A stretch of DNA of 64,000 bases from an uncultured Candidatus Poseidoniales archaeon (GTDB lineage: Archaea; Thermoplasmatota; Poseidoniia; Poseidoniales; Thalassarchaeaceae), in contig CAYFFQ010000001.1 of the NCBI GenBank assembly GCA_964342465.1, positions 279,691 through 343,690 of the forward strand, in the 5' to 3' direction. The notes beneath the pieces were generated by a model. The model saw only the letters and a list, made by a program, of their open reading frames with translations. It ran no database searches and had not been told where the DNA came from. Positions 966 through 49,658 of the stretch are shown here, piece after piece. A program made the position numbers and the translations under genes. How positions within the stretch are numbered: the stretch's first letter is position 1; each line of letters opens with the position of its first letter.

Positions 966-2240
966 TCAGAGTTTGGCGAGGATTCTGCTTCCGTCCTCGA
1001 CCCTGCAATCAGATATTGTGAGAGCCTCCTCCACCTTCCTCAACAGACCACCATCAAGTTGTCCACGATGATAGATGGTGACCCAAACTTCACCTCGCTC
1101 AACCTGCGATGAAACTCCGACTTCCAACAGCATCCCAACCTGCATGTCGATGTTCTCATCAACCCGCTTGCGGCCGGCTCCGAGGTCGCGGCAGACCTCG
1201 GCGAGAGCGAGGGCATCAATCGATTGCACCCAACCTGAATCGGCAGCCTTGATTTCCGTAGTCTTCAGGGTGTCATCCAATAATCCGAGGCCGACCATCA
1301 GAGAATGTTCGCTTCCGAATAGAGAGGGAGATGCCCCCTGATTTGTTGACATAGCGATGAATTTCGCAAGCGCTGAGCCATCATGGAGGGAATTGAATAT
1401 CATCCGAGCCCCCTCATCCTCATCGTCTGTCAATCCGGCTGCTGCGAGCATAATGCCGCCCTGCACGCATACCAACTCTTCCAAGTCGCGTGGCCCGTTG
1501 CCGAGCAATGTCTCCACCGATTCAATAACTTCCAGTGCATTGCCGATTGCATACCCGATTGGATTATCCATCTCTGTCAGTAATACCGAGGTGTCAATTC
1601 CCAAATCACGACCCGATGAAGCCAAGCATTTCGCCAACTCTTGCGCTTCCTCTACTGTCTTCATGAAGGCCGCCCTTCCAACCTTTACATCCATGACGAG
1701 AGCCGAGAGGCCGGCGGCCGCCTTCTTGGAAATGATGGAACCCGTCACAAGAGGAGTGGAGGCGATGAAGCCACTCACATCCCGTAGTGCATACATCCGT
1801 TTGTCGGCAGGTGCCATGTCAGCGGTTTGACCGACTATAGCGCATCCGATTTCTGCCACCTGCGTTTGAAACCGTTCGATGGAGAGTGATACAGTATATC
1901 CCGGCATCGCTTCCAGTTTGTCAAGAGTTCCTCCTGTATGGCCCAAACCCCTTCCAGAGACCATCGGAACCTTGGCCCCACACGCAGCGACGGCAGCCGC
2001 AAGAGGCAAGGAGACCTTATCGCCAACACCTCCAGTACTGTGTTTGTCGACCACTAGGTGCGCATACTCATCCGGCCATGAGAGTACGGTGCCTGAATAG
2101 GTCATCGCCTCTGTCAGTTCGGCGATCTCACCCCTGTTCATCCCGTTGTCAAAGACATCTTGAAGCCAATCTATGACCTCTGCATCACTCATCGAGCCAT
2201 CGACGACTCCGTCCACAATCTGTTGGATGGTCTCTCTCAT
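966..2240 (-). CDS. deoA: thymidine/pyrimidine-nucleoside phosphorylase family protein
   Basis: 424 aa. Family signatures VVDKHSTGGVGDKVSLPLA and SGRGLGHTGGTLDKLEAMPG; convergent with glyA, with 1 nt between the stops. Confidence 0.85.
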   Translation of the reverse strand: MRETIQQIVDGVVDGSMSDAEVIDWLQDVFDNGMNRGEIAELTEAMTYSGTVLSWPDEYAHLVVDKHSTGGVGDKVSLPLAAAVAACGAKVPMVSGRGLGHTGGTLDKLEAMPGYTVSLSIERFQTQVAEIGCAIVGQTADMAPADKRMYALRDVSGFIASTPLVTGSIISKKAAAGLSALVMDVKVGRAAFMKTVEEAQELAKCLASSGRDLGIDTSVLLTEMDNPIGYAIGNALEVIESVETLLGNGPRDLEELVCVQGGIMLAAAGLTDDEDEGARMIFNSLHDGSALAKFIAMSTNQGASPSLFGSEHSLMVGLGLLDDTLKTTEIKAADSGWVQSIDALALAEVCRDLGAGRKRVDENIDMQVGMLLEVGVSSQVERGEVWVTIYHRGQLDGGLLRKVEEALTISDCRVEDGSRILAKL

Positions 2241-2270: not shown

Positions 2271-5200
2271 TCATTTCCTGTTCTGGTTGTAGTGTTCACG
2301 CAACTGTTCGACCGTCCAGCCAGCAGCCAACGCCTCCTGCACCTGTTGTGGGGTCCAACCCTCGAACTCAAAACCGTCCATCAGAGGTGCCCCATGCACC
2401 CCGTCGTGTCTGCCGATGGCATTGTCTCGGCCTGAGAGAATTTTCGGCTCACCCGTCGCCGTCGAACTGTCAAGAACAAAGGTATCACCCTCGGCGGATG
2501 GATGGTGGTGCGAAGTGGATTGATTGATGCTGCCGAGGTCAGACGGCGAATCATCGATGAATGCTGCTTCGGTAAAATCAAGGAGGGTGTCCGATACCAC
2601 TCCGCTGGCATTTTCGCGACCGCTGAGGAGGACTGCGAGAAGAGCAATTACTAGCGCGATCATCGCCACACCGACGATGCTAAGGAGGATTCTTGCAGCC
2701 GTTGAATCTAGAGGGTTATCTGCTTCAGGCAATTGAGGTCCTTGGTCAACTGTGCCATTGGAGTTGTCATCTCCGTTGCCGTTGGTTATTCCAGCGATGT
2801 TGCTTCCGCATTCTGTCTCTTCGCCATCCGCCACGCCGTTGTTATCGGCGTCGGCGAAGAGGATGGCGTCAGTAGCAGCCACGCCAGCAGCCGTGGCGAA
2901 CAACAGTTCAGCCATGTCATCGACGCAGTCGCCATCGGTGTCGGCGTTGTGGGGGTCGCCGCCTACCTCCATCTCCCTGAAGTTATCCAATCCATCTTCA
3001 TCGAAGTCGTGTGACTGCTCGGGAAGTGATGAGCCAGGAATTACTGAACTGGTTCTGTTCAGTCCATACTCCAACTCCCATGCATCTGGAAGATTGTCGC
3101 CATCACTGTCCGTTGAATTGTCCAAGCGATACCAATCCTCTTCGAAAGAGGCGGTGTACCACTGTGCCAAGGCGGCGTTGTTGACCACGATTCCCATTTC
3201 GCGATTGCGCAGAATCGCATTCGAATTCCAGTTGATGGAAGATATCAATACCGACTCTCCATCGACGATAACGCCCTTGTTGTGCAATTTCGTGATACGT
3301 GCTCCCGGTGCCATCAGAATAGCGGTGGCGTCATATCCGTCGCTCCGGTTCCATTGATTGTTGAAATGGTCGACACTCTCCCGAATGTCGTTGTCAGTCC
3401 ACACATAGTAACCGTTGATGAGAAGTCTTACCTTCACCCCTCTTTGCAATGCTCTTTCAATCGCCGCTGAGAGGGGGTTGTCACCGAAACCCCAGTGCCA
3501 GCCGAGGTCAAATCCCTGAAGTGAGAGGTCGATGCTCGTTTCTGCTGAGTCGAGCAGGTTGACTATTCCAGAGACACAGTCGTCAGGGCAGGTGAAAACT
3601 TGACCATTGATTTCTCCGGTGATGGTGGGCGGAGTTTCAGTAGGGGGTGGTGCATCCAGTCCACTTGGGCCTGCGGAGGTCCACCCGCTCGGGCGTCCGG
3701 TCGATGGGTCAACAGTGCTGTATGCATTGAGGTGTGGATGGCTCACATCCTCATCCCATTCTAGACGAGTCAATACGAGTTGGGCTACATCGGCGGAGTC
3801 AATTATGAGGCTCCAGTCGCGATTTGAAGACCAGTCGCCGGGAGGTAATGTGGATTCTTTCAGGTTCCCTGAACTTACCCAGACAGATTCTCCATCACGA
3901 ACCGCAACCTTGCTGTGTAGGTATTGGTATGGGGCTGGTGGTGCATTTTCGCCGCGTGGATTCCCCATCCAGTAGACATCGACTCCACCGGCATACAGTT
4001 CGTAAGCCATTCCTCTTATCTTGTAGAGGTCTTCACCCTCTTCGAGGGGGTCTTCTTCCAAGACCACCGTGATGTCGACATCAGCAGCCGCCAACTCCAC
4101 CAGTTTGGCAACGATGTCGCCCCCCATCAACTCATAGACATGGATGTGAAGTTCAGTCTGTGTTCCATCCAACCACTCAAGGAATTGGTACAAACTACCA
4201 TCTGGAGAAACCATCGGTGTCACGCTTCCGGTGGTGGTGAAAACTCCAGAATCACAGAAGAGGCTCGCCCCGAGGCGAATCCAGCGCACCTCCCAATCAG
4301 CACTGCTGTTCGTGTCATCAACATCGCTACAGCCATCGCCACGCATGAAAATCAACCCTTGGAAGGTGGCAGGTGGTTTGGAGACAGCAGGGCCACTCCA
4401 CCCCTCAACACTCGTCAATCCATCACCATAAGCCACCGTGTCAGCGACCAACCCTTCGGGGGAAATCAACTGCAATGTGGCCCCCGAATCATACATCCAA
4501 GGTGAGTAATCTAGGACATCATCCATGTCCACGGCTGACAACCCGCCATCTTCGCTCAGATTCTCAGGGGATTGCGAGAGAATCACCGATTCTCTCGGCG
4601 CGAGGCTATACGCTGTGAAAGTGCCTGAATTCGAGCTTCCATCACTTTTGATGCGGTTAAGGTGCCATCCAGAGAGGTCGAGGACGCTGGTTCCCATGTT
4701 GGTTATCTCGATGAACTCGTTGTCACGGTTGTGCACTTGGCCGGGCATGATGCGAGTGAACCACACTGGGTCTTCGGGATTCCAAGGAGTAGGCGTGGGG
4801 TTCTCCTCCCCCGGGGTTGGCCACATGGTGTTGAGCCAATCCTCCTGCCATGCGGAAGAGTCTCCTTCGATGCTCCTACAATTTTCAGAACTCGTCCAGC
4901 GCGCTTCCTGTCTGACATTCCCATTCGGGTCTCTGAGGTCCACCATCTCATTGAAATTTGAAAGGAAACCGTTGTTTTCAGGCACGACTACAACATAATC
5001 ATCGGGTTGGAGATTCCACCAATCGGTTGGCGCTGTGGGTGAGCCAGTCTCAAAATGCTGCAAGAAGTTATCCCTGAGAACGAGTGCATCACCATTGTCG
5101 TTGGCGACTATCCATCTCGATAGATTGATTGTCTCGCTGCCGCTGTTGTGCAGTTCCAACCAGTCGCCATCGATGTCCAATCCTCCAGCAGTGCATTGTG

Positions 5201-7214
5201 CCATGACTTCTGATATTTCCAGCGTGACAGCCCCAATGTAGGGGTCTTCAAACTGGGGGTTTTCCTGACCGGGAGTGGGCCAAGGGGATGCTACCCAAGT
5301 GGAGGTAGGGTCATTTCCTGCGACCAGTGTGCCATTGAGAGGAGTGAGCCCATAGACAACCGTCTGCACAACTTCATCTTGAGAGTCGTGAAGGGTCACT
5401 GCATCACCACTGTTCTGAAGATTCATGGAAGTGCCGTTGCGATAGACGACGAGGTGGCCACCCGCTTCCAGCATCCAGTCATCACCGTTCGCTTCATCGA
5501 GTCCGGGTATGGTGGTCGAGTCGAATCTAAGTGATGAGTTGCGTCCATCCTTCATTCGCCAGTTCTGGAAACTTGCTGATTCATTGCCGACATTGACAAT
5601 TTCAATCCATTCTCCTTCGGGGTGGATATTGCTGTCAGAACCCGTCGGGTTGGCCATGATTTCAGAGATTCTGAACTGGGCACTTTCGTTCACGGATGAG
5701 GAAATCTGATTTGGATTCGGCCCCGCGGGTGTCGCCCAATTGGAAATTGAGAGGGGCTGGGCAGGGAGGTCGGCATCTATTGGGATGGCGGTTCGGTTGG
5801 TTCCGGGGTCAGAATCCCAGTGGATAGAATCGACGATGACACCGTCAGGGGTGAGGAGGGAGAGTGTGTCACCGCTAATCAACATCTGAGCGGTTGTCTG
5901 TGGAGCCGTGAGGACGACGTATGTTTGCGCATCAACAGTCATACCATTTCCACTGTCGCGGTCGACAAAACCCGCATCGAGCGAGAACGACTGACCACTG
6001 CCTGTGCGAATTTCCCATCCGGTCAGGTCGACGCCAGCACCACTACCGCGGTGGGAAAGTTCAAACCACTCTCCGTTGGGATATGCGAGCCAACTGTTGG
6101 TGGCGTTGACCATCACCTCGTTTATGCGAACATCGCTACTGCCGTTGACATTGCGGGCAGCAGGCTCAAGCGGAGTGGGGAATAGAGACTGAACCCAATT
6201 CCCCCCACCTGTGAGAGGAGGGACGAATGAATGGCCAGCCTTGCCGTTGCCGCTGTAATTTGCGGCAGAGACATATTCTCCCTCTGGATTTACGAGAAAC
6301 GCTGAATCGCCACCGTTGTTGAAGACGCCATACTGGTTCATGCCATTGGTGGCGACGACCCTTCGCTCGCCAGGGTTGATTACAGCTGATATAGCGTGGT
6401 CGACCAGATGGCTGGCGTTGATGGCCAAGATGTTGCCGGTTTGGTCTTTTATCGTCCAATTGTCCAGTGAAATCGGGTTGGAGCCATCGTTGATGATCTC
6501 AACCCATTCACCAGCCGGATAGGTCCCATTGTCATTCGATGGCCACGCATCGGCGAGCACTTCCGTGATTCGCAAGTCGCTGACGTTCCAAGTGGGGCCC
6601 CCACTACCACTGCCCGAGTTCACTGCGCCCGGTGTGATGGTGGAAACTTCTGGCCAGTCTGCGCTAGGTGAGGCACCCTCGACCAGTGAATTGCCCTGAT
6701 TGGCGTAGATCGACCATGTGGCCTGATGCTGGAGGTTTCCGTTGGAATCATAGAGGGAGGAGACACCCTGTCCATTGGTCATGCAGTACCCGCAAGACTG
6801 CCCATCTCCGTTGCGAGCGACGACCATGTAATCTCCAGCTTGGATGACCAGATTCTGTGGATTCTGCGGCCAGACGACGGTCATCGGAGATGATGTGATG
6901 GAGATGTCAAGTTGACGTGAGGAGTGGTCTTGCAAATACCAACCCGTGACATCAACGCTGGTGGTGCCGGAATTATACAATTCAACCCATTCGCCGCTTG
7001 TCCAATCTGTGGGGCCGACGGCATCCGTCTCAGAGCCCACCGCATTGACGAACAACTCGTTCAAGCAGACCGCGCCGACGCAACCGCTGCTCTTGGCTGC
7101 GCCTCTGATGGTAGGCGCCTCTCTGAGAAAAAGTGCGGTTTGGCTGCTTAGAATCAGTAATATCAGTATCAGGTAGATGGGTGTCTGCTTCGCTTGCATG
7201 GGGTCCACTCTCAA
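2271..7214 (-). CDS. giant cell-surface protein: signal peptide, 6 LTD-like modules, PLD-superfamily (2 x HKD) domain, Ca-binding D-x-D-x-D-G repeats, C-terminal TM anchor and 115-aa cytoplasmic tail
   Basis: 1647-aa ORF. Signal peptide TPIYLILILLILSSQTALF. LTD pattern is seen e.g. in ISEIMANPTGSDSNIHPEGEWIEIVNVGNESASFQNWRM. HKD motifs are YLHSKVAVRDGESVWVSSGNL (His codon 3917-3915) and KLHNKGVIVDGESVLISSINW (His codon 3284-3282). Ca-type repeats DSDGDNLPDAWE, DEDGLDNF, DTDGDCVDD. TM ILLSIVGVAMIALVIALLAVLL. Start is TTG 7214 (MRVD...) or ATG 7199. Confidence 0.9.
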   Translation of the reverse strand: MRVDPMQAKQTPIYLILILLILSSQTALFLREAPTIRGAAKSSGCVGAVCLNELFVNAVGSETDAVGPTDWTSGEWVELYNSGTTSVDVTGWYLQDHSSRQLDISITSSPMTVVWPQNPQNLVIQAGDYMVVARNGDGQSCGYCMTNGQGVSSLYDSNGNLQHQATWSIYANQGNSLVEGASPSADWPEVSTITPGAVNSGSGSGGPTWNVSDLRITEVLADAWPSNDNGTYPAGEWVEIINDGSNPISLDNWTIKDQTGNILAINASHLVDHAISAVINPGERRVVATNGMNQYGVFNNGGDSAFLVNPEGEYVSAANYSGNGKAGHSFVPPLTGGGNWVQSLFPTPLEPAARNVNGSSDVRINEVMVNATNSWLAYPNGEWFELSHRGSGAGVDLTGWEIRTGSGQSFSLDAGFVDRDSGNGMTVDAQTYVVLTAPQTTAQMLISGDTLSLLTPDGVIVDSIHWDSDPGTNRTAIPIDADLPAQPLSISNWATPAGPNPNQISSSVNESAQFRISEIMANPTGSDSNIHPEGEWIEIVNVGNESASFQNWRMKDGRNSSLRFDSTTIPGLDEANGDDWMLEAGGHLVVYRNGTSMNLQNSGDAVTLHDSQDEVVQTVVYGLTPLNGTLVAGNDPTSTWVASPWPTPGQENPQFEDPYIGAVTLEISEVMAQCTAGGLDIDGDWLELHNSGSETINLSRWIVANDNGDALVLRDNFLQHFETGSPTAPTDWWNLQPDDYVVVVPENNGFLSNFNEMVDLRDPNGNVRQEARWTSSENCRSIEGDSSAWQEDWLNTMWPTPGEENPTPTPWNPEDPVWFTRIMPGQVHNRDNEFIEITNMGTSVLDLSGWHLNRIKSDGSSNSGTFTAYSLAPRESVILSQSPENLSEDGGLSAVDMDDVLDYSPWMYDSGATLQLISPEGLVADTVAYGDGLTSVEGWSGPAVSKPPATFQGLIFMRGDGCSDVDDTNSSADWEVRWIRLGASLFCDSGVFTTTGSVTPMVSPDGSLYQFLEWLDGTQTELHIHVYELMGGDIVAKLVELAAADVDITVVLEEDPLEEGEDLYKIRGMAYELYAGGVDVYWMGNPRGENAPPAPYQYLHSKVAVRDGESVWVSSGNLKESTLPPGDWSSNRDWSLIIDSADVAQLVLTRLEWDEDVSHPHLNAYSTVDPSTGRPSGWTSAGPSGLDAPPPTETPPTITGEINGQVFTCPDDCVSGIVNLLDSAETSIDLSLQGFDLGWHWGFGDNPLSAAIERALQRGVKVRLLINGYYVWTDNDIRESVDHFNNQWNRSDGYDATAILMAPGARITKLHNKGVIVDGESVLISSINWNSNAILRNREMGIVVNNAALAQWYTASFEEDWYRLDNSTDSDGDNLPDAWELEYGLNRTSSVIPGSSLPEQSHDFDEDGLDNFREMEVGGDPHNADTDGDCVDDMAELLFATAAGVAATDAILFADADNNGVADGEETECGSNIAGITNGNGDDNSNGTVDQGPQLPEADNPLDSTAARILLSIVGVAMIALVIALLAVLLSGRENASGVVSDTLLDFTEAAFIDDSPSDLGSINQSTSHHHPSAEGDTFVLDSSTATGEPKILSGRDNAIGRHDGVHGAPLMDGFEFEGWTPQQVQEALAAGWTVEQLREHYNQNRK
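4425..7073 (-). repeat. intragenic array of six ~110-aa lamin-tail-domain-like modules (protein-level repeats)
   Basis: Approximate module aa ranges are 48-180, 212-331, 359-466, 512-622, 662-773 and 817-930. Each has [IL].E[VI][ML]...GEW[VIF]E[IL].N.G....[VL].L..W followed by a G[DN]...L.D..G segment. Confidence 0.7.
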
Positions 7215-7262: not shown

Positions 7263-7279
7263 TTCGCCCTATGGGCGAA
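7263..7279. promoter_or_regulatory. perfect palindrome TTCGCCC-TAT-GGGCGAA upstream of the LTD-PLD giant gene
   Basis: 7-bp arms with a 3-nt A/T centre, 49 nt upstream of TTG 7214. A run of 7 T (7288-7294; A7 on the gene strand, TATA-like) flanks it. Function is not established. Confidence 0.3.
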
Positions 7280-7371: not shown

Positions 7372-9249
7372 TCATGTGAATCCGAACGAATCCATCCTCG
7401 CTGCGAATGTGTAAATCATTATCGGTACGAGAATGATACCCATGCCGTGGCTTCTGCGAATGCCGATACGAGGTGGCATCAATCCGAGGACAGTGCCGGC
7501 GATGAGTACACCTATGCCTATCCACCCAGTAGTGAGCCAGACAAGAGCGGAGACAAATATGATGACGCTCATGACGAGTGAGCGCAGAGGAATGAGTTCG
7601 TGCAACTTCAACATACCCTGTCCGACTTTGACCATGATGGGAACAGCGAGCAGTCCTGAAGCGACTGTGACTGCGAGCAATCTGATGAAGTCTGGTGGCG
7701 GTTCGATTGCTGACCATGGGTCTATAGGATACATCATGTTGAGGGCGAGTGCCGCCCCTGAACGAGGCCGCCCCACCAGATAGAGGAAGGCGAGAACCAT
7801 CACCGTGACGGCGGTGTTTGTCGCCGAGAGGATGGCGATGACTTCGAGGTCCTGTTCACTCGATGTCATCTCAAGGTCGAGGTCGGGGGATATCTCCCTC
7901 TCCTCCCTCGCCGCACTGAGGAGAGCGAGGTCTTCAGCGCTCAGTCCACCACCAGTCAATCCCATCATGGCGTTTTCATCATCAACGAGTTGGCGACCAC
8001 CCCTCACTGAGCCATCGAGAACGATACCACCTGATGAGAAGGGGGCCGCTGCTGACCCTCCACCGTCTTGACCAGTGACAGAAGTGGAAACTCCTGACGG
8101 TGAGACGGCTTCCGGCATGGCGGTGGATGCGAGAGTGATGCTTCCTGCCGCTGGGTCAGTTGCAAGAGTGGTGACTCGTGCAGTCGGTTCGGTATTTTGG
8201 CTGGTGGCGGCGAGGGCTTCTGCTTCCTTCCTCCTAGCCATCGCCTGCATCGCCGGATGATTCGCTTGACCTGGGCCAAATTCAAAATCGGCGGGGATAT
8301 AATCTGGGTCTCGCAGTTTACCGAAGAAATTGCGTACGCTCATCACCACAACCGTCGCTTGGGCGGCGGTCATTCCAGGAAGAATAGCCATCACCGCGGC
8401 ACAGATGGAAGAGAGGAAACATGGAATCACCAGTGGCCCTGCCGGCGGCAGGTCCCACTCATCATCTTGCGAGGGCATCTCGCTCGTCGTGACATAGATG
8501 TCCAATAGATTGGCGATCCCGAAGAGACCAGCCAACCCAGGCATCAACATCGTCGCGCTCGGCATACCGACTGGTGAACGGCCCGGCAGTTCAAAGACCG
8601 CCCAGCCGTAGAAACCGCTCAACAGGAAGAAGGCGGCGGCGACGATGACTCCGACCACATTTGAATTGTCGGAGAAGGAGAAGTCCAACTCGCGGCCAGC
8701 CACTTTCACCTGCCACTTCTTCGACAGTGCCTGCATCCAGCGCGGCCAAGGCAGTCTCGTCGTCTCGGTCAGAATCAGAAAACTGGAGATGGCCAACAGC
8801 AACCACGGAAGAATCTCACGACTCTCTTCATAGAAACCGAGCCCCGGGTTCTGACCGAACAGGAATCGGGCGAACAGTAGTAGTGGAATGGATAGGAGTA
8901 GACCCAACTGTGACCCTCGCGCAGAATAGGCTACACCCTGCGTAGCCTTGCCGGCGAGCAACATACGATGGCCGGGCAACAGCGCCAACGCGGTGTCACC
9001 GTCAGGAGCACCCACCAGCGCACTCGGAATGTAGTTGAGGAAGGTATGCACAGTACCCATGGCGACGATTATCGCCGCAACCGCTGAGAGAGGAATGCCC
9101 ACTCCCACCGCCAAGGGGGAGAGACTCAGTGCGATGAGGGCCACATTGTTGACATGGAATCCAGGGATGAGTCCAGTCATGCAGCCGAGAAAGACCCCGA
9201 TGAAGAATGACGCCATCAGCCAGAGCCATTCACTCAACCAGATCTCCAT
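7372..9249 (-). CDS. polytopic membrane protein, TctA/DUF112-like, with a ~155-aa low-complexity cytoplasmic insert
   Basis: N-terminal FLGCMTGLIPGFHVNNVALIALSL and ~12 hydrophobic helices resemble archaeal TctA-family/DUF112 proteins (recognised from memory, not searched). The likely start is ATG 9249 (MEIWLSEW, GGTGAG 3 nt upstream). TTG 9303 would overlap the upstream stop at 9266. Confidence 0.6.
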   Translation of the reverse strand: MEIWLSEWLWLMASFFIGVFLGCMTGLIPGFHVNNVALIALSLSPLAVGVGIPLSAVAAIIVAMGTVHTFLNYIPSALVGAPDGDTALALLPGHRMLLAGKATQGVAYSARGSQLGLLLSIPLLLFARFLFGQNPGLGFYEESREILPWLLLAISSFLILTETTRLPWPRWMQALSKKWQVKVAGRELDFSFSDNSNVVGVIVAAAFFLLSGFYGWAVFELPGRSPVGMPSATMLMPGLAGLFGIANLLDIYVTTSEMPSQDDEWDLPPAGPLVIPCFLSSICAAVMAILPGMTAAQATVVVMSVRNFFGKLRDPDYIPADFEFGPGQANHPAMQAMARRKEAEALAATSQNTEPTARVTTLATDPAAGSITLASTAMPEAVSPSGVSTSVTGQDGGGSAAAPFSSGGIVLDGSVRGGRQLVDDENAMMGLTGGGLSAEDLALLSAAREEREISPDLDLEMTSSEQDLEVIAILSATNTAVTVMVLAFLYLVGRPRSGAALALNMMYPIDPWSAIEPPPDFIRLLAVTVASGLLAVPIMVKVGQGMLKLHELIPLRSLVMSVIIFVSALVWLTTGWIGIGVLIAGTVLGLMPPRIGIRRSHGMGIILVPIMIYTFAARMDSFGFT

Positions 9250-9265: not shown

Positions 9266-10807
9266 TCACCGACGGTCAATACAGAGTTGCACTTCTCGCT
9301 CAATCACATTCTCCTGTGTAGTGAGTCTTCCACTCCAGTCTAGAGGAACCTGCCCAGTGGCGTTCTGGGTGGCCATCTCCGTGCCATCTCCTAGGAGACA
9401 GAGTTTCTCACCGAGTTGTGTTCCTTCCCTATTCACCCATAGAGTTCCATTGTCCTCACTGACGATGCCGTTGATCTTCACCAATTTGTTGATGTCCCAC
9501 TGCCACGAGTCATAGCCCTCAGTCCAAGCGAGGGTGACCACAGGTATCGGCTCTTCAACCCAGATTGACATGGTGTGAACCTGAAGGAGCAGCCGTGCAT
9601 CAACGGAGTCCCAGATGAGTGTAGCAGAGACCGTCACCTTGGTGCCGGCTTCGACCCATTCGTCACGCGCCCCTTCCAAGACGATTCTCAGTTTCGTTGA
9701 GCGGCTGAAGTAGTCCGGTCCGTCAGCGAGGTATCCCTTGTTGTAGTCGGGGGAAATCGGGCTGTCAATCCAACCGACGAGGTCCAATGTCTGATTGCGG
9801 TAGGCGTTGGGGTCGCGCACAAGGTCGGACAAGGGGGTGGTATCGCCTCCGATGTCTCCAGTCGGGTTGATGAGTTCTGTGGATTGTCCGTGGTCGAGAC
9901 AGAGTTGGATTCTCTCCTCTTCCCACACCAGTCTGCCGGAAAAATCACCGATGTCACCATGACTGTCATTTTCATGGGGGAGTAGACATAGTTTGTTGTT
10001 CTCCCCCGGTCCCATTATCCACCACGCACCGCTGTCGTTATTGGCTTCACCTTCGATGGTGACCAGCGAGCCGATATCATAGGACCAAGTTGTCGAATCT
10101 GCGCTCCAAGAGAGCCTCTTGGCACCGGCGGCGTGGATGATGGTTATCTGGGTCGAATGAGTCTGAAGTTGCCAGCGGAAATCACGCTCAGACCAGCGTA
10201 CCCAACCGGTCACGATGATTTTTGAACCAGCCTCATAACTCTCATTGAGCCGCCCCTCAATCGCCAGTGAGATGATGTGGTCGGCATTTCCGTATGATGG
10301 ATGGTCCATCAGTGATGAAACTTGGCGGGTGACATTCCCTTCGAGCACATCACCCGAATATCCGACCAGTGAGATGAGGTCACCCTCGAACGCTGCAGGG
10401 TCGTGCGATACGCCAGTGAGATTCATGTTGTGAACCTCAGGAACCCAATCGCGGTCCCACTGAACCGCACCAGCACCCTTTGATGAGAGCCAGATTCTGC
10501 CATTCCACTCAGTCACCTCGCCTACTACCTGCACCAATGTCCCGATTGGTGGGAGGATGCCTGTCTCGGTCCATCTCACCTCACTGACATTGTAGCCATC
10601 CTCGACCAGCAGGTCGATTCTGTCCGTACCACTATCGTAGGGGTCACGCACATAGGAGGTCAATTCCCCACGAATTTTCACTGACTCCCTGATGTGTTCA
10701 TGCAGGTCAGCGATTTCCACGATGTCAGGTTCCCTGACAACAGCATAGAAATTCATCACGCTGACGAGGAGAATGCTCAGGAAGAACATCGCCCATAGTT
10801 TCGCCAT
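9266..10807 (-). CDS. N-terminally anchored/secreted hypothetical protein with duplicated two-part module
   Basis: 513 aa. N-terminal hydrophobic segment MAKLWAMFFLSILLVSVMNFYAVV. Internal duplication is described in the findings. It lies 16 nt upstream of the next gene on the same strand. Confidence 0.75.
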   Translation of the reverse strand: MAKLWAMFFLSILLVSVMNFYAVVREPDIVEIADLHEHIRESVKIRGELTSYVRDPYDSGTDRIDLLVEDGYNVSEVRWTETGILPPIGTLVQVVGEVTEWNGRIWLSSKGAGAVQWDRDWVPEVHNMNLTGVSHDPAAFEGDLISLVGYSGDVLEGNVTRQVSSLMDHPSYGNADHIISLAIEGRLNESYEAGSKIIVTGWVRWSERDFRWQLQTHSTQITIIHAAGAKRLSWSADSTTWSYDIGSLVTIEGEANNDSGAWWIMGPGENNKLCLLPHENDSHGDIGDFSGRLVWEEERIQLCLDHGQSTELINPTGDIGGDTTPLSDLVRDPNAYRNQTLDLVGWIDSPISPDYNKGYLADGPDYFSRSTKLRIVLEGARDEWVEAGTKVTVSATLIWDSVDARLLLQVHTMSIWVEEPIPVVTLAWTEGYDSWQWDINKLVKINGIVSEDNGTLWVNREGTQLGEKLCLLGDGTEMATQNATGQVPLDWSGRLTTQENVIEREVQLCIDRR

Positions 10808-10915
10808 ACCTTCGCACGGTCAACTATTCGGCTTGAAGGTTGGGGGGAATGAAGTGAGAGAACAGATGGAAAAATCGTAGAGTGGTTTATCCTCTATCGC
10901 TATAGTGGTAGGGCT

Positions 10916-12262
10916 GTGAAGCAACCGCCAAGCCACTCCCGTCTTCTCTTCGCATTGACCATCTTCGCCCTCTGTGCCACATTGAGCACACCACCTCACA
11001 ATTCTCTCGGGAACATCTATTCCGGACAATCATCCGATGCTGATACAGCGGGCGACTCTGAGAGAGTCACTTCCAATTGGACAGCGCATCTCCCAGTTTG
11101 GCAGGTGGGTGAAAAGTGGGTCTACGACATCGTCCTCGACGCGAGGGAGATGGTGGCTAACTCGTCCGACCTTGAAGGTGCGGAATTGGACCCATTGGTG
11201 GGAGAAGCGACCATTGAAGTCATGGGTGTGGAAGAGAGAGATGTTGGCGGTGCAATCACTCCTGTCTATCGAATACTCACTGATGCCGAGGTAGTAGGAG
11301 ATGGGAGGGATTTCCCTGCCCCTATCCTTGGAAGGGTGGATGGTTATCTTACCTCTGGATTCACCCTCACCGAATACCTCAGGGTCGGCGACTTGGCGCT
11401 GGTGGAATATGACAAAGAGATTCAAATGAGATTCACTGCTGAGGTCGCCTTCGTTGAACAGACGGTGGAAGTTGCTGATTTCGTTGAGTCAGGCGCATAT
11501 ACACCGCCCCTAGAGTTCTATGATTACCCGATGGCGGACAACGAATCGTGGAATTTAGTGACCAATCTGACCAAGACTTACAGTGGAAGCAGTGATGTGG
11601 TCACCCTACCCGAGCAACCCGAATACTTTGACCAAGAGTGGTTGTTCAACATCAATGAGAGTGGGGATGGTGGTTACGCTGGTTGTGAGAACAGCACCCG
11701 AGTCTGGCAGACCAACCCCGACGGAGAGGTTGAAGAGTGGAGGTGGTGGTGTCCAGCCGTCAATCAGTATTCGCGACGATGGACCAACGATATCGCCCTC
11801 GGTGGAGTGGATGCGGACCTTCAGTTGACCGCATACACAACCCCGACTTCCTCGATGTTCGTAGAAGTGGTTGTGCAACCGGAATCTACTCCCCTGAACA
11901 GCGAAGTTGATATTGTGGTCAACATCACTGACTCATTCGGGAATGCTGTTGTAGGGGAGTCTGGGTTCATTTATCTTCATGGTGTCACACCACTGACATT
12001 CATTACCGACGAAAACGGAACATCACAAGTGAGGATGCAGGTCGGGAACAGTATGGATGACACCCCCACTGCTGATGATTGGGCCACTCATGGGATCGTC
12101 GCCTATCTGCACGCCGACCAAAGTGTCGGGGCGACAACCGTGACGCTTGAAGGAAGTGCGATAGGTGGTCTGTTGAGAATTCATGCCAATAATCTTGCAT
12201 ATCACGCCTCATCAACGATGGCCTCCCAATCGGCAATGTTTGAGGCTTCGGTTAGATACTGA
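10916..12262 (+). CDS. secreted hypothetical protein with C-terminal Ig-like segment
   Basis: 448 aa, GTG start. Signal peptide SRLLFALTIFALCATLSTPP. The segment VVQPESTPLNSEVDIVVNITDSFGNAVVGESGFIYLHG looks like a bacterial Ig-like (Big) strand pattern. No C-terminal TM. Confidence 0.7.
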   Translation: MKQPPSHSRLLFALTIFALCATLSTPPHNSLGNIYSGQSSDADTAGDSERVTSNWTAHLPVWQVGEKWVYDIVLDAREMVANSSDLEGAELDPLVGEATIEVMGVEERDVGGAITPVYRILTDAEVVGDGRDFPAPILGRVDGYLTSGFTLTEYLRVGDLALVEYDKEIQMRFTAEVAFVEQTVEVADFVESGAYTPPLEFYDYPMADNESWNLVTNLTKTYSGSSDVVTLPEQPEYFDQEWLFNINESGDGGYAGCENSTRVWQTNPDGEVEEWRWWCPAVNQYSRRWTNDIALGGVDADLQLTAYTTPTSSMFVEVVVQPESTPLNSEVDIVVNITDSFGNAVVGESGFIYLHGVTPLTFITDENGTSQVRMQVGNSMDDTPTADDWATHGIVAYLHADQSVGATTVTLEGSAIGGLLRIHANNLAYHASSTMASQSAMFEASVRY

Positions 12263-12267
12263 ACTCC

Positions 12268-13374
12268 TCACAGGTCAAGGTCATCCAAGGGGTCGTGTGG
12301 CTCGTCTTCTCCACTCTCATCTGCCGCCTCGCTGTCGCTTACAATCGGAATCACCGGAGCGGTCATTCGTGGTTTCGGCACCATACTCAGCCCGAATCGA
12401 GTGGCTCCGATTCCGATGACGACAAGAACCGCGAAACAGGCGAGCAGTATAGGCATCAGAGAATTAGTTGATTCATTCGCGTCGTGCGGTTCAGTGACAT
12501 AATATCGATAGTCGACCAAGGTGGCCGAAAGGGTCAATGTTCCATTGTGCCATCTCTCCGTGCGCGCAAGAAATCCCTCAGAGCGGAAGAAATCGACGGT
12601 CGTGGTGTTATCGGAAAGGTCAACCCTCTCGACAGCCAAGGTGTCGTGCCTCTTTTCGTTGAGGTCGCCATAGTGAACATCCCTCTCACCTAACACACGA
12701 AATGCAACCTGTGTCACATTGGAGTGGTTGTATTCCCTCTCAGACCAGAGGCCGTGGTTTTCGCGAACCCTCTCAGTGCCACTCACTTCAACCCTCTCTT
12801 CGACATCCCAGATTCCTCCGAGTTCAACTCTCACGGGGAAATGCCCAACCCTCTCGACGAGTTTGACTTCTCTCAGTTCGTGTTCAAGGAGGTTTTCTTC
12901 CCCCCCACCGGAAAATGTCGTGGTGGTGCTCGTCACGCTGTCCAGTTTTTCCCAACCGGCAGTTCCACGCGCCTGCCAATGGGTCGCGTAGTGAGTGATG
13001 CTCATGTTCAGGGTGTCGTTGTCGTAGTTGGTGGTATTTGCCTGCCAACCGACGGAGATGTTGACGGTGTGACTGATTTCCGCCTTGATACAATCACCGG
13101 ACCAAGAGAGGATGGTGCATACTTCGTTTCCCTTATGGGTGACGCGCAATTCTTCCACATCGTTCAGGGTTACCCCTTCGAAGTTCTCTTCGCCTTCCCA
13201 CTGTTCTCTCAGTTTTGCTGTCAGTGATTCAGAGTATCCCTCGTAGACGAACCAGTCATCGGGAGTGTAGTCCGGATTGCTCACCATCTCTATTGCCGAT
13301 ACATGAGGCAGAGGGATGAAGAGGATGATTAATAGGCAGATGAAAGCGTTACGCCCACACTTGACCAGCCTCAT
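12268..13374 (-). CDS. type I membrane protein, hypothetical, acidic DDLDL C-terminus
   Basis: 368 aa, ATG start. Signal peptide NAFICLLIILFIPLPHVSA, C-terminal TM LMPILLACFAVLVVIGIGA, tail ending DEPHDPLDDLDL. Confidence 0.7.
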   Translation of the reverse strand: MRLVKCGRNAFICLLIILFIPLPHVSAIEMVSNPDYTPDDWFVYEGYSESLTAKLREQWEGEENFEGVTLNDVEELRVTHKGNEVCTILSWSGDCIKAEISHTVNISVGWQANTTNYDNDTLNMSITHYATHWQARGTAGWEKLDSVTSTTTTFSGGGEENLLEHELREVKLVERVGHFPVRVELGGIWDVEERVEVSGTERVRENHGLWSEREYNHSNVTQVAFRVLGERDVHYGDLNEKRHDTLAVERVDLSDNTTTVDFFRSEGFLARTERWHNGTLTLSATLVDYRYYVTEPHDANESTNSLMPILLACFAVLVVIGIGATRFGLSMVPKPRMTAPVIPIVSDSEAADESGEDEPHDPLDDLDL

Positions 13375-13442: not shown

Positions 13443-13461
13443 GCTCACCCAAAGGGTGAGC
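13443..13461. promoter_or_regulatory. perfect palindrome GCTCACCC-AAA-GGGTGAGC, 21 nt upstream of the subtilase ATG
   Basis: 8-bp arms with an AAA centre. Its core ACCCAAAGGGT is identical to the site at 49615-49625. It sits between a T-rich box (13393-13402) and the GGAG at 13473-13476. Confidence 0.4.
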
Positions 13462-13482
13462 GATATGCAGGTGGAGTCAGGT

Positions 13483-15474
13483 ATGAACCTCAAGCGAGTC
13501 GTCATTTTGACGATAAACCTCTCAGTGATGGCCCTGTTCATCATGCCGTTGATTGGTGCTGCTGCTACCATTCCCGCTTCTGAGGGGGGCGCTCTGAAAC
13601 CGTGGTGGGAGACTACCAACATGGACAAGGATGGCGATAAGATTCACGATGCCATTCCGATAGCAATTCGTAGCACTCAGCGCGATTGGGTTGACGCTGA
13701 GGGGCGCATCGGAGTCATCGTTGATTTTGACCACACACCGACTGAAGCGGATGAAAGAATGTTGGAAAAGAGGGTGGATTTCAGAGTTGAGTTCAGGTAT
13801 CATCTGATAGATTCAATCGCCGGAACCGTCGAAACCAGCAGGATTGGGACTCTTGCCAATCTCCCCGGTGTCGTGCTGGTCGAAATTGACGGAATACTGA
13901 CCATCCAAATGGAGGATGTGAAAGAAGTTCACGGGGTCACTAATGTTTGGGATGAGACAGGTTACACAGGTGCAGGCTCAGTCGTGGCCATCATCGATAC
14001 CGGTATTGACGGCAACCACACTGGTCTTGATGACCTTGATGATGACAATTCCACAAATGACCCGAAAATCATAGGATTCTATGATGTAATCAACGCCCCC
14101 GACCAGACCAACGGTACCGATGTCACGCCTTATGACGACCAAGGTCACGGAAGTCACTGCGCCGGTATCACTGCGGGAACCGGAGCGCCGACCTACGAGC
14201 ATGTCGGCATCGCCCCAGAGGCGCAACTCGTCGGGGTGAAGGTACTCGACTCCGGCGGTTCTGGTTCATTCGCACAGGTGATGCAGGGGATGCAGTGGAC
14301 GGTTGACAATCGTCACAAATTCAACATCAGAGCCGCCTCGATGAGTCTCGGCGGCCCTGGTGCATCAGAATGGACCGCAAGTGAACAGGAGAGCACCAAC
14401 CGGATGGCCAACGAGATGGTCAGGGCAGGTATTGCCCTCTTCATCGCTGCCGGCAATTCAGCCTTTTCCGCCCAGATAGGAACCCCCGGCAGCGCCGAGG
14501 ATGTCATCACGGTGGGTGCGCTGGACAAGGACACCGGCATCGCCATCTATTCATCTCAAGGACCGACTGAAGAGGGTAGAATCAAGCCAAACATAGCCTT
14601 TGTCGGAAGCAATGTCATGTCAGTGGAAGCAAACAGCGGCGATGGCTACACATCTATGTCTGGGACCAGCATGGCGACTCCCGGAGCCGCCGGCCTCGCC
14701 GCTCTCATGTATCAAGCCAATCCAGACCTCTCACCTTTCGATGTCCGTAACATCATGCAGGAGACTGCCACCTATCGGCAATGTCACTACCTGCTCAAGA
14801 ACGAACCTTGTGCTGAAGACCTCATCCCCAAGAATCGTCAGAACAATGTCTACGGACATGGTCATACGAATGCAGAACCCTCGGTAATGGAAGCAGCCAA
14901 CAGGGTGTTCGGCTTAACCCTCTCAATCAATGTATCATCCTTGACAGAAACCGCTAGTGACAACAAGGTTCACATCGGACCGGGTGAAGTGGTTGATTTC
15001 AACATCATTGGAGAACCTGCCGGCAAGGTTCAATGGCGAACATGGGATATGCGTGACTACTGGTCTGACCATCCTGATTTCATAGCCGGTGATACAGATT
15101 TCGCCATCACGCACGCCATGCTGAATGACCGACTCAAGTACCTGCCGGGCAACGAGGTGGTGGGCAACCAGACCATCATCGTTAGGGCTATCACAGGGGA
15201 TAACGCATCAACCAACGCGGTGGTTCACCTGCATGTCATGGGCGACACTCCTCTCACAGTTGGGCAAGAGGGTGGGGGAATTGATGGATTGGTTCTGCTT
15301 CTCGCAGCCCTGTTGTTCATCTTCGCCATCGGCTTGGTGGTCATGTTCCTCATGCTCCGTGGCGTCATCTCCTCTCCTGACAGATGGGCGGAGGTCATTG
15401 AAGGCGATGACTTCGGTGACCGCGAGATGATGGATGGAGAGTTGCTCGACATCATCTCAGGCGACTCCGGTTGA
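13483..15474 (+). CDS. subtilisin-like serine protease (S8), secreted, C-terminal TM anchor
   Basis: Catalytic motifs VVAIIDTGIDGNH (Asp), HGSHCAGI (His), SGTSMATPGAAG (Ser). Signal peptide MNLKRVVILTINLSVMALFIMPLIGAAA, with GGAG 6 nt before ATG 13483 (the ORF is open from GTG 13456). C-terminal TM GLVLLLAALLFIFAIGLVVMFLML plus an acidic tail. Confidence 0.9.
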   Translation: MNLKRVVILTINLSVMALFIMPLIGAAATIPASEGGALKPWWETTNMDKDGDKIHDAIPIAIRSTQRDWVDAEGRIGVIVDFDHTPTEADERMLEKRVDFRVEFRYHLIDSIAGTVETSRIGTLANLPGVVLVEIDGILTIQMEDVKEVHGVTNVWDETGYTGAGSVVAIIDTGIDGNHTGLDDLDDDNSTNDPKIIGFYDVINAPDQTNGTDVTPYDDQGHGSHCAGITAGTGAPTYEHVGIAPEAQLVGVKVLDSGGSGSFAQVMQGMQWTVDNRHKFNIRAASMSLGGPGASEWTASEQESTNRMANEMVRAGIALFIAAGNSAFSAQIGTPGSAEDVITVGALDKDTGIAIYSSQGPTEEGRIKPNIAFVGSNVMSVEANSGDGYTSMSGTSMATPGAAGLAALMYQANPDLSPFDVRNIMQETATYRQCHYLLKNEPCAEDLIPKNRQNNVYGHGHTNAEPSVMEAANRVFGLTLSINVSSLTETASDNKVHIGPGEVVDFNIIGEPAGKVQWRTWDMRDYWSDHPDFIAGDTDFAITHAMLNDRLKYLPGNEVVGNQTIIVRAITGDNASTNAVVHLHVMGDTPLTVGQEGGGIDGLVLLLAALLFIFAIGLVVMFLMLRGVISSPDRWAEVIEGDDFGDREMMDGELLDIISGDSG

Positions 15475-18165: not shown

Positions 18166-19185
18166 ATGCGGTGCGAAAAGTTCGCTTCGGCGGTGACCAC
18201 ATCCCTTCTCATCGGCACCATCCTTGCCCTCTTTGCCGCGCCTGCGTCGGCGCAGTTGGGCAATCCCAACCCCGCAATCAATCTGACCTGTGAGGGAGAA
18301 ATTGTGGAAATCGATGTCAGTCCGGGTGCCAGCAGGGTGGGCTCATTGGATTGCTTGTTGGAGAACCCCTCTATCCATCAAGAGGATGTCAATATCTCAG
18401 TCGATGAGATAGACCTTCAGGTCTCCTATCCCAACAGCATCTCGGTGGCGCCGAACAGTGATACAACATTCACCGTCAGTTGGGCGGGCGAAATCGGCGC
18501 ACCGGTAGCCTCGTTCTCCACCATAGTGGAAGCGACCGTCACCACAGTGAACGGTCTGCCGTACCCCTTGGGTGAATCAAAGAGTGAGAGTGTGACGGTT
18601 GACATTCTTCCGTTTGGGCGGCCGTGGATTGACATTTCAGGGCAGGAGTTGGCGCTTGAACATGGTCAGAGTTCGACGGTGAATTTCTCACTTCGCAACA
18701 CTGGAAATGCCGAGGATACGCTGCGGGTCACCATTGAAAACCAGAGCGGTTTGGAACAGTTCGGATTCACCTTCGACTACTCAGCCACTTCTGCGAGGTT
18801 GGGGGTCAACGAATCAGAGGAGATCACCCTCACCATCACCGCATCTGAAGAGATTCTTGACGGCTCATTCGTCGTCATCCTTCAGGCTACGAGCGAGATG
18901 GCAGAAGATGATGGTGAACCTTGGGTGGTGGAGGAGAACTTCAGATTACAATCTCTTGCCAAGGAAGAATCCTTCCTCACGACATCAGTTGACAGTGTAC
19001 CTGCTTGGGCCATCACCACAACTATGGTGCTGGCCGGTTTGGCTGTCGTTGGTGTCATCGTGGTGGCTGTCAGAGTGATGCTTTCCAAGCGTGGTGGGAT
19101 GAAAATATCCGGCGACAGCGCCGCAGACGTTGATTTTGAATTCGACGATGAGGAGTTCGCAGATTTCGAGTTGGATGACCTTTGA
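18166..19185 (+). CDS. cell-surface protein, two-domain, TM-anchored, acidic tail (paralog of 19266..20222)
   Basis: 339 aa. Signal peptide LLIGTILALFAAPASA. The segment FSLRNTGNAEDTLRVTIEN resembles CARDB/COG1470-type surface domains. TM WAITTTMVLAGLAVVGVIVVAV; tail ends DVDFEFDDEEFADFELDDL. Confidence 0.8.
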   Translation: MRCEKFASAVTTSLLIGTILALFAAPASAQLGNPNPAINLTCEGEIVEIDVSPGASRVGSLDCLLENPSIHQEDVNISVDEIDLQVSYPNSISVAPNSDTTFTVSWAGEIGAPVASFSTIVEATVTTVNGLPYPLGESKSESVTVDILPFGRPWIDISGQELALEHGQSSTVNFSLRNTGNAEDTLRVTIENQSGLEQFGFTFDYSATSARLGVNESEEITLTITASEEILDGSFVVILQATSEMAEDDGEPWVVEENFRLQSLAKEESFLTTSVDSVPAWAITTTMVLAGLAVVGVIVVAVRVMLSKRGGMKISGDSAADVDFEFDDEEFADFELDDL

Positions 19186-22221: not shown

Positions 22222-23964
22222 TCACAAGTCGTCCAAATCCTCATCTAGATGGTTGATTACTTCCCGTGAGATGGTGATGGTCTTGGGACTTGCATCCTTG
22301 TCGCGAGTTGCGGTGAAGTAGACCACGAGTCCTAAACCGACGACCAGAGCGACTATGAAACTGATGAGTAGCGCACTATCTCCCTCACTCACTTCAGCGG
22401 CGGTGCTCCATTCGGTTGTAAGGGTGCTATCACCTCCACCGAGGGTGCCATTCACAACCACTTGCGACGGGGTCATCGGCATACACCTCAATGTATGATT
22501 ACCACTTGATGGTACTCCCCATTTGAGGTCAATCGTGGCGGTTTCACCAACTCCGAGGAGTGCTGCTGGATAGGGTGGTGAAATATCCGCCCTAACTTCT
22601 CCGACATGACACTCCAGTGGTACACTCGCTGCGGCGAGGCCGTTATTGGTTATGGTCACCCTCACCTCTGCTCTCTTACCGACCGAGGCCGCTTTCTCCA
22701 ATGAGATACCGGTCACCGAAACATCAGGTAGAATTGGGAAAAGGACTTCCACATCACTGCTCTTCTCAAGTGAGTTGTTGGCTCCATAGTAAGTGCCCCA
22801 GGCGGTGAACCATTCAACATCGGAGATTCTCGCATCCTCACTCCAAACCGTTCCGTTGGCATACCCAATCTCGACGATGCGAGGTCCCTGTTGATAGTTG
22901 GCTGGGACGATGTAGGAGCCATCAACCATGGAATGACCGAAGAGAGTCTTTTCTTGAGGCCCGACGCCAGTCAGATTGAATGTGATGCCGGAGCCGGGGA
23001 AATGAAGAGTCTGTTCTCCCACCTGCCTCTCCCAGAGGTCGATTATTCCACCTGAGCCATCTACTTCGCTCAATGATATCTCAGCCGCGGCATCTGCTTT
23101 GATGTCATGGTCCTCCCTGCTTCCACTGAAAGAGCCGCCGCTCATGGTAATCGATGCTGATTCCCCCGCCAATATCAATGGGCCAGAGGTATTGATGTCT
23201 GTTGAAGTTGAGGAAAATGCGCCGTTGATGGTCACATCAGCCCCATTCATCTCTGAGTCAATGGCGACAAGAGTGCCGCCTTCGGAGATGTGGAGAGAGA
23301 ATCCGGCGCTTCCTCGCAGCAACCAGTTTTCATTGTCGAGGTCCGCTGCTTCATAGACATTGGTGGTGGTCGCCCGATTGACTTCAATTCTGTCCACCAC
23401 CAGTTGCCCATATTCACCGACATTCTGATTGAAGTAGAGTGTACCACCTCCGCCGCTGACAACTCCGGCGGTGATGGTGTGGCTGTCTCCTGACATGTCC
23501 TCGTTCGGCCCTTCATTCCAGCGCACCGTGAAATTCGACAGATTGTAATCTGTGGAACTGAAGATGGTGATTGTGAACAGACCGAACTGCTCAGGCACGA
23601 ACAATGTCGCTTCGTCTCCATAACCAGCCCACATCTGGAGGTCAGAGGGTGGATACTGCGAACTGAGAGATGCGTTTTCAAGAACGACTCCGCCGTTAAT
23701 CACGATACTTGTACCGTTGGCAATTGATAGGTTGCCATCAATCCTCAGAGTGGCGCCAGCCGCGACGGTCACCATTCCATCAAGAACCATATTCCCCGAC
23801 CAGTCGGTGTCATCTGAAATGGTGACGGCGGAGCCATCTTGCGGGGGGGGGTCTCCAGCAACAACCAGTGCACTGTTCATCATCATAGTGAGGCATACCA
23901 AGACGACCAACCCAGTCACTAGCGTTCCTCTCGCCATACTTCCTGCGAGTCGGTGGTAGGCCAT
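22222..23964 (-). CDS. TM-anchored surface protein with beta-helix-like N-terminal half and CARDB-like domain
   Basis: The likely start is ATG 23964 (MAYHRLAGSMARGTLVTGLVVLVCLTMMMNSALVVA) or 23937. The TTG-extended ORF to 24102 would overlap carS. CARDB-like VSVTGISLEKAASVGKRAEVRVTITNNGLAAASVPLECHVG. TM ALLISFIVALVVGLGLVVYF; tail ends HLDEDLDDL. Confidence 0.8.
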   Translation of the reverse strand: MAYHRLAGSMARGTLVTGLVVLVCLTMMMNSALVVAGDPPPQDGSAVTISDDTDWSGNMVLDGMVTVAAGATLRIDGNLSIANGTSIVINGGVVLENASLSSQYPPSDLQMWAGYGDEATLFVPEQFGLFTITIFSSTDYNLSNFTVRWNEGPNEDMSGDSHTITAGVVSGGGGTLYFNQNVGEYGQLVVDRIEVNRATTTNVYEAADLDNENWLLRGSAGFSLHISEGGTLVAIDSEMNGADVTINGAFSSTSTDINTSGPLILAGESASITMSGGSFSGSREDHDIKADAAAEISLSEVDGSGGIIDLWERQVGEQTLHFPGSGITFNLTGVGPQEKTLFGHSMVDGSYIVPANYQQGPRIVEIGYANGTVWSEDARISDVEWFTAWGTYYGANNSLEKSSDVEVLFPILPDVSVTGISLEKAASVGKRAEVRVTITNNGLAAASVPLECHVGEVRADISPPYPAALLGVGETATIDLKWGVPSSGNHTLRCMPMTPSQVVVNGTLGGGDSTLTTEWSTAAEVSEGDSALLISFIVALVVGLGLVVYFTATRDKDASPKTITISREVINHLDEDLDDL

Positions 23965-23984
23965 CAATGCGCCGCTCTCGGGGG

Positions 23985-23994
23985 ATAGATTATA
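23985..23994. promoter_or_regulatory. TATA-like box ATAGATTATA in the 56-nt divergent gap
   Basis: It lies 21-30 nt from ATG 23964 (minus gene) and 27-36 nt from ATG 24021 (carS). This fits one bidirectional archaeal promoter driving near-leaderless transcripts. Inference only. Confidence 0.3.
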
Positions 23995-24020
23995 CCACCA
24001 TCTGCACAGCCGAGGGAGTG

Positions 24021-49627: not shown

Positions 49628-49658
49628 AGATACCGCAGCGAATGCTGTGGGTGGACAC

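Follow-up and report, generated by a model that had tools for sequence, protein, structure and literature searches.

The minus strand of the stretch analysed here, 64,000 nucleotides from an uncultured Candidatus Poseidoniales archaeon (the window), encodes a protein of 1642 amino acids (aa) in which six lamin-tail domains (LTDs) precede a phospholipase D (PLD)-superfamily domain with two HKD motifs. On its sequence profiles and predicted fold, the family of this protein, LTDx6-PLD, is best classed with the LTD-bearing extracellular nucleases, with a Nuc-like, PLD3/4-like two-HKD domain. The evidence tips modestly towards a cell-surface nucleic-acid phosphodiesterase that would act inside a gene cluster for harvesting extracellular DNA. 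The conserved gene context carries most of the functional information and was overlooked by an earlier note on this DNA, made from the letters alone. The value of the finding lies less in the domain fusion than in an order-wide module of three or four genes.

Searches with the LTD and PLDc models and a structure prediction of the PLD region had been proposed in the earlier note as checks. Both models score far above their cut-offs, Pfam PLDc_2 matching two stretches (E 1.1e-33, 116 bits against a cut-off of 27). Both HxK(x)4D(x)6(G/S)SxN motifs are intact and lie exactly where they had been claimed, with H1100/K1102/D1107 in the first and H1311/K1313/D1318 in the second; this numbering is that of the earlier note, in which the Met of the database protein P0001 lies 5 codons after a TTG. 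An alignment of 89 orthologue clusters, with an overall identity of 32-72%, showed that the H, K, D, S and N of the motifs are invariant or present in 88 of the 89, which indicates an intact catalytic machinery maintained by selection. The AlphaFold2 (AF2) model of aa 975-1375, calculated with a 48-sequence alignment, is one compact bilobed domain joining both HKD halves (pLDDT 94.1, pTM 0.93). Judged by its motifs, its Pfam score and its modelled bilobed fold, the domain is a member of the PLD (HKD) superfamily. With two HKD halves in one chain, it is not a subunit of a single-HKD homodimer. Comparison of the model with the PDB by Foldseek ranked PLD3 and PLD4 first (E ~4e-22, TM 0.66), followed by Serratia SpPLD (7e0m, 6e-20), Streptomyces PLD and human PLD1/2 (1e-19 to 1e-18) and poxvirus F13, and the alignments to two-HKD enzymes are full-length (E 1e-22 to 1e-18). 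The predicted fold confirms a two-HKD bilobed enzyme. However, it separates the possible substrates weakly, and the sequence profiles separate them better.

Comparison of the family profile with the PDB gave the Nuc endonuclease at 6.6e-18, mouse Zucchini/MitoPLD at 3.9e-13, NucT at 2.5e-12 and SpPLD at 6.7e-11. A poxvirus nicking-joining enzyme (2.9e-5) and PLD3 (1.4e-4) are weaker matches, and for PLD1, PLD2 and Streptomyces PLD the E-values are only 1e-3 to 6e-3. The NCBIfam models gave a similar order, with DrmC at 7.7e-18, NucT at 1.8e-9 and ClsB at 5e-3, all below their own cut-offs (for ClsB, 16 bits against 281). By these profiles, the sequence of the PLD domain resembles Nuc, NucT and Zucchini, which are characterised nucleases, more than the lipid-acting PLDs. 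A reading of the domain as the DISARM defence protein DrmC was rejected because the domain is extracytoplasmic and its match, 65 bits, is far under the cut-off of 133. Nuc, NucT and Zucchini share the HxK(x)4D(x)6(G/S)SxN chemistry with LTDx6-PLD. However, they are single-HKD proteins of ~150-200 aa that act as homodimers, whereas two HKD halves are fused here in one domain of ~385 aa within a large membrane-anchored protein. PLD3 and PLD4, lysosomal 5'-3' exonucleases of single-stranded DNA or RNA, resemble LTDx6-PLD in being two-HKD single chains with a membrane-tethered, non-cytoplasmic catalytic domain. However, the identity is 15-18%, and both are eukaryotic type-II proteins without LTDs, indicating that LTDx6-PLD is not a PLD3/4 orthologue.

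The close homologues are all from Poseidoniales (Marine Group II archaea), from both Thalassarchaeaceae and Poseidoniaceae. At 90% identity they form about 90 clusters of proteins of 1560-1690 aa that are 32-72% identical and have the same LTD and PLDc_2 content, with the conservation distributed over the full length and few gaps. A pattern scan of the GTDB species genomes found a relative encoded in 506 of them, of which the best 80 are all Poseidoniales. The distribution, the conservation and the invariant HKD residues together indicate that the gene belongs to the core of the order and encodes an enzyme that looks active, and that the fusion is not a rare one. Thus, the domain order with six LTDs, which the earlier note had considered unusual, is standard in the order.

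Non-orthologous relatives were sought by searching the PLD domain against 1.84 billion cluster representatives, which gave 3070 matches at E<=1e-3 and 84 at E<=1e-30. LTDs are also present in 36 of the 47 nearest of these relatives, and the core of LTD followed by PLD is found in most distant relatives, indicating that an LTD directly before the PLD domain is an old and stable pairing in the phylum. By domain content, Poseidoniales extended this pairing to six LTDs. The named relatives are from Thermoplasmata or Thermoplasmatota metagenome-assembled genomes. The LTD and PLDc_2 proteins of other Thermoplasmatota (P0237, P0241, P0249, P0250) belong to the same PLD subfamily (28-34% identity), have an LTD directly upstream and are often giant surface proteins. 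However, they have 1-4 LTDs, often with added CARDB or PKD domains and cohesin too, and sometimes two full PLD domains. Three proteins of 2000-2300 aa (P0237, P0241 and P0246) contain four LTDs, CARDB and four PLDc_2 stretches, which make two complete PLD domains per protein. Distant standalone relatives bear generic labels, COG1502 or 'cardiolipin synthase', which were treated as uninformative.

Five loci examined in detail and GTDB loci located by tblastn show a fixed order on one strand, in which genes for an OB protein of 513-593 aa and a TctA permease precede LTDx6-PLD and a thymidine phosphorylase gene follows it. The OB protein and then TctA are directly upstream in 44 of the 44 loci with sufficient DNA, and the thymidine phosphorylase is downstream on the same strand in 51 of 52 loci. 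The synteny covers both Poseidoniales families. The phosphorylase of the window scores 426 bits with the NCBIfam model for thymidine phosphorylase (cut-off 269) and 418 bits with that for pyrimidine-nucleoside phosphorylase (cut-off 409). The TctA permease has 625 aa in the window and ~500 aa in the Poseidoniaceae orthologues; the ~130 additional residues form a central low-complexity insert that is acidic and rich in Ala, Ser and Gly. The permease gene has no TctB or TctC partner beside it. The OB protein (513 aa in the window) is specific to Poseidoniales and has an N-terminal helix, conserved cysteine pairs and invariant Trp, Cys and Arg columns. Its AF2 model is a string of small beta-barrels (pLDDT 82), and its best Foldseek matches are all tandem-OB DNA binders, namely p204, IFI16 and AIM2-type HIN-200 proteins (E 3.7e-11), RPA70, Teb1, POT1, CST, LEF-3 and SSB. 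PF01336 is present in two members of the OB-protein family, and the NCBIfam search of the OB protein gave no match.

The profile affinity to Nuc, Zucchini and NucT, the fold similarity to PLD3/PLD4 and the OB and thymidine phosphorylase neighbours lean together towards nucleic acid. The hedged proposal of the earlier note, a phosphodiesterase acting on DNA or phospholipid, is therefore supported and narrowed, with extracellular nucleic acid, DNA and perhaps also RNA, as the most likely substrate. In the proposed mechanism, the six Ig-like LTDs would form a flexible distal arm of roughly 25 nm that holds polymer or particles, and an acidic calcium-binding stalk would keep the PLD domain within ~140 residues of the membrane. 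The PLD domain would cleave nucleic acid without metal via a covalent phospho-histidine intermediate, while the surface-anchored OB protein would serve as a DNA receptor that holds the DNA. TctA or another carrier would import the breakdown products, and the cytoplasmic thymidine phosphorylase would catabolise the resulting deoxynucleosides. A tighter coupling is possible, though doubtful: the OB protein, TctA and LTDx6-PLD may form one machine that captures, digests and imports dissolved DNA in every Poseidoniales lineage examined, with the OB protein as the substrate-binding partner of the permease and with nucleotides or nucleosides as its cargo.

Several observations weigh against these proposals. 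In the gene context, TctA-family permeases are known for carboxylates and not for nucleotides. The sequence evidence for the OB fold agrees with the fold matches but is sub-threshold (Pfam tRNA_anti-codon, E 0.007; profile against PDB RPA2, E 0.59) and insufficient, so the assignment rests on AF2 and Foldseek. OB folds also bind ligands other than nucleic acids, and the PDB is skewed to DNA-binding OB proteins. The OB and TctA neighbours are absent beside two distant LTD-PLD loci of other Thermoplasmatota (P0094 and P0097), where unrelated genes are found; thus, the synteny could partly be inherited gene order, and the context argument is limited to one order. For the enzyme itself, the Foldseek gap between true PLDs and PLD3/4 is only about three orders of magnitude, and no solved cardiolipin or phosphatidylserine synthase is among the PDB matches for comparison. 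The best single-sequence PDB match, 7e0m, was deposited as a phospholipase, and the relatives have automated names of the kind 'cardiolipin synthase-like'.

Both of these last points would also fit a surface phospholipase D or transphosphatidylase, which would take head groups off the phospholipids of vesicles and of membrane debris from algae or bacteria, caught by the LTD arm, or remodel the cell's own outer leaflet, within reach of the membrane-proximal PLD domain. HKD chemistry is common to PLDs and cardiolipin synthases, the bilobed fold is shared with them, and the Foldseek matches to Streptomyces and human PLDs are strong. Genes for GDPD and diacylglycerol kinase lie near one distant relative, and a proposal by Mans et al. 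(2004), quoted in PMC6085458, has LTDs targeting proteins to membranes. However, the profile similarity is ~15 orders of magnitude weaker for true phospholipases than for Nuc, ClsB stands far behind DrmC and NucT, and the genes conserved beside LTDx6-PLD encode a DNA-binder-like OB protein and a thymidine phosphorylase, not lipid enzymes. LTDx6-PLD also differs from the classical enzymes in its extracytoplasmic location. In addition, the authors of the 7e0m structure report nuclease-like loops and a missing acyl-chain gate in SpPLD, and ask if it is really a nuclease (PMC8004604). A lipid substrate thus appears unlikely.

The gene context also bears on whether a surface nuclease would serve nutrition. 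LTDx6-PLD could instead process DNA for uptake, as in the natural transformation of Helicobacter with its PLD-type NucT, or destroy viral or foreign DNA. The profile places NucT near the top of its matches, DrmC, a defence protein, has the closest NCBIfam model, and an OB-fold DNA receptor combined with a membrane protein and a nuclease would resemble a competence machinery. However, the TctA family consists of small-solute permeases and not of DNA channels, the downstream thymidine phosphorylase suggests catabolism, and the conserved cluster of the five loci contains no recombination or competence genes. Such a non-nutritional role is rated as quite improbable.

The LTD model of Pfam (PF00932) matches six stretches (E 1.1e-79, 264 bits in total against a cut-off of 34.3). 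The number of six given in the earlier note therefore stands. However, the modules, with their linkers, recur every ~150 aa, and LTD6 extends to about aa 980 rather than 930. A recent tandem duplication of the modules was ruled out, since pairwise identity among them is only 17-31% and every module position shows conservation within Poseidoniales. The combination of LTD, OB and nuclease is the known layout of ExeM (PMC6085458) and of the Izemoplasma DNA-degradation locus (PMC8289736). Shewanella ExeM, Vibrio Xds and the Izemoplasma protein have a signal peptide, one or more LTDs, OB modules, a phosphodiesterase domain and a C-terminal membrane anchor, and are linked to genes of nucleoside catabolism or transport (PMC6085458, PMC8289736). 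The secretion signal, LTD and envelope anchor of the ExeM/Xds type are all found in LTDx6-PLD, in which the anchor is a transmembrane helix with a cytoplasmic tail. In contrast, the catalytic domain is of the PLD and not the EEP type, there are six LTDs instead of one, and the host is an archaeon. Pfam found no OB fold within LTDx6-PLD; the OB folds would be supplied in trans by the gene two positions upstream. Without its LTD, ExeM was less active in vitro, but extracellular DNA degradation in vivo did not require the LTD (PMC6085458).

The Ig-like LTD repeats make up more than half of LTDx6-PLD, which also suits an adhesin or surface-layer component. Here the LTD array would attach to particles or cells, and the PLD domain would act on another phosphodiester polymer (phosphoglycans, teichoic-acid-like material) or help to acquire phosphate from small phosphodiesters. 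The neighbourhood has many genes for giant surface proteins that share this type-I anchoring, and PKD, CARDB and cohesin domains stand beside the PLD domain in relatives. However, the retention of LTD and PLD as a unit (36 of 47 relatives) and the invariant catalytic residues indicate that catalysis is central, and this alternative does not account for the affinity to the nuclease clade or for the OB and thymidine phosphorylase neighbours. It is given little weight compared with a nucleic-acid phosphodiesterase.

The uncultured Marine Group II archaea rank with the most abundant surface-ocean heterotrophs, and their diet is inferred from genomes only. Dissolved DNA is a large pool of organic phosphorus and nitrogen. 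A syntenic, order-wide cluster of a nuclease-like enzyme, a DNA-binder-like receptor, a permease and a thymidine phosphorylase offers the testable hypothesis that Marine Group II harvest dissolved DNA. Among archaea, LTDx6-PLD is the first protein to stand out as a candidate extracellular nuclease of the metal-independent PLD type, and it is a natural system for learning what prokaryotic lamin-tail domains bind. Capture, digestion and import by one machine, if correct, would place Marine Group II archaea among the major consumers of dissolved DNA and its phosphorus in the surface ocean, a role not recognised before, and would add nucleotides or nucleosides as a possible new substrate class for TctA permeases.

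Table 1. Features of the LTDx6-PLD gene and its conserved neighbours, with positions in the window
Feature	Position	Strand	Evidence or remark
LTDx6-PLD gene	2271..7199	-	1642 aa + stop
N-terminal signal peptide or hydrophobic leader (MQAKQTPIYLILILLILSSQTALFL)	7125..7199	-	Hydropathy
LTD1 module	6576..7070	-	Pfam LTD; module boundaries
LTD2 module	6132..6575	-	Pfam LTD; module boundaries
LTD3 module	5676..6131	-	Pfam LTD; module boundaries
LTD4 module	5223..5675	-	Pfam LTD; module boundaries
LTD5 module	4767..5222	-	Pfam LTD; module boundaries
LTD6 module, abuts PLD domain directly	4275..4766	-	Pfam LTD; module boundaries
Bilobed two-HKD PLD-superfamily domain	3120..4274	-	Pfam PLDc_2 x2; AF2; Foldseek; profile against PDB
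HKD motif 1 (HSKVAVRDGESVWVSSGN; H1100, numbering of the earlier note)	3864..3917	-	Regular expression and alignment
HKD motif 2 (HNKGVIVDGESVLISSIN; H1311, numbering of the earlier note)	3231..3284	-	Regular expression and alignment
Acidic TSP3-like (DxDxD) stalk between PLD domain and membrane	2706..3119	-	Motifs; sub-threshold CglD, MtsD; conserved D/G columns
C-terminal transmembrane helix	2616..2705	-	Hydropathy
114-aa cytoplasmic tail (last 47 aa, 2274-2414)	2274..2615	-	Hydropathy; conservation
TctA-family permease	7372..9249	-	Pfam; synteny 44/44
OB-fold protein, N-terminally anchored, first gene of the trio	9266..10807	-	AF2; Foldseek; weak Pfam OB; synteny
Thymidine/pyrimidine-nucleoside phosphorylase, 30 nucleotides after the LTDx6-PLD stop	966..2240	-	NCBIfam above cut-off; synteny 51/52

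Counted from TTG, the interval 2271-7214 on the minus strand comprises one open reading frame with 1647 codons. The identical database protein P0001 begins at an ATG 5 codons downstream, and the orthologues align from this Met. On this comparison, the true start is the ATG at 7199, and the TTG at 7214 is a mechanical start only. The sequence and domain content of the protein are already in public databases, labelled as 'lamin tail domain-containing protein' or 'hypothetical'. In the library searched, no paper on lamin tails in Marine Group II or Poseidoniales, or together with PLD or HKD, deals with it, and a general review of Marine Group II contains nothing relevant. The protein is very acidic (pI 4.1, 1% Lys). 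Hydropathy analysis showed an N-terminal leader at aa 11-30 and one strong helix at aa 1504-1533, followed by 114 residues, one fewer than the tail length in the earlier note. These signals support a type-I topology with an ectodomain of ~1490 aa tethered to the cell, in agreement with the cell-tethered extracellular protein that had been proposed. The stalk is acidic and repetitive, as had been described. However, only one copy of the strict D-x-D-x-D-G is present, together with three more of D-x-D-x-D. The TSP3-like label rests on NCBIfam matches to CglD and MtsD below threshold, and the repeats probably bind calcium. The last 47 aa of the tail contain a conserved, doubled GWTxEQ(V/L) motif (consensus DGVSGAPQLDLARFPGWTEEQVQDYLDQGWTIEQLAEYYQEQ). 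A hidden Markov model of this tail end, searched against all open reading frames of 87 related loci (1.1 Mb), matches the LTDx6-PLD family only, and the tail has no significant Pfam match (DUF433, E 0.16; PRD1_DD, E 0.08). The motif may couple the ectoenzyme to something intracellular.

A palindrome with a perfect 7-bp stem, TTCGCCC-ATA-GGGCGAA, lies at 7263-7279 inside the 172-nucleotide gap between TctA and LTDx6-PLD. It is unique in the window, with an expectation of 0 after shuffling, and could be a regulatory or terminator hairpin. In Poseidoniaceae (L003-L005, about 10900-12700, and other loci), LTDx6-PLD and the thymidine phosphorylase gene are separated by genes for BaxI, a Bax-inhibitor-like membrane protein, and for a DIOX_N/2OG-Fe(II) oxygenase. 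The Thalassarchaeaceae locus L002 has the oxygenase insertion only, and in the window both are absent. Any connection between the oxygenase and pyrimidine salvage is speculative. A weakly dGTPase-like HD/HD_assoc_2 protein is encoded divergently beside the cluster in Poseidoniaceae and several genes away in the window.

Four unrelated surface proteins of the window, encoded at 12268-13374 (-), 18166-19185 (+), 22222-24102 (-) and 13456-15474 (+), share a build of signal peptide, C-terminal transmembrane helix and a short tail that is very acidic. The final residues of three tails are ...DDLDL, ...ELDDL and ...DLDDL, which may be a common sorting or anchoring signal. The gene at 26327-35911 (+) encodes a protein of 3194 aa with about 10 N-terminal transmembrane helices, an STT3 (AglB-type oligosaccharyltransferase) domain, an extracellular region of ~2400 aa and a C-terminal transmembrane helix, which is unusually large for an oligosaccharyltransferase. 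Two adjacent genes, 49647-55391 (+) and 55494-61259 (+), encode giants of ~1900 aa that are essentially blank in Pfam except for a TSP3_bac repeat in the first. Among the giant surface-protein genes, 41940-44498 (+) encodes a cytoplasmic protein of 852 aa with HTH, STAND/AAA_16 NTPase and TPR regions. The gene at 62788-63891 (+) is an apparent fusion of a pyroglutamyl peptidase (Peptidase_C15) and a NUDIX hydrolase domain.

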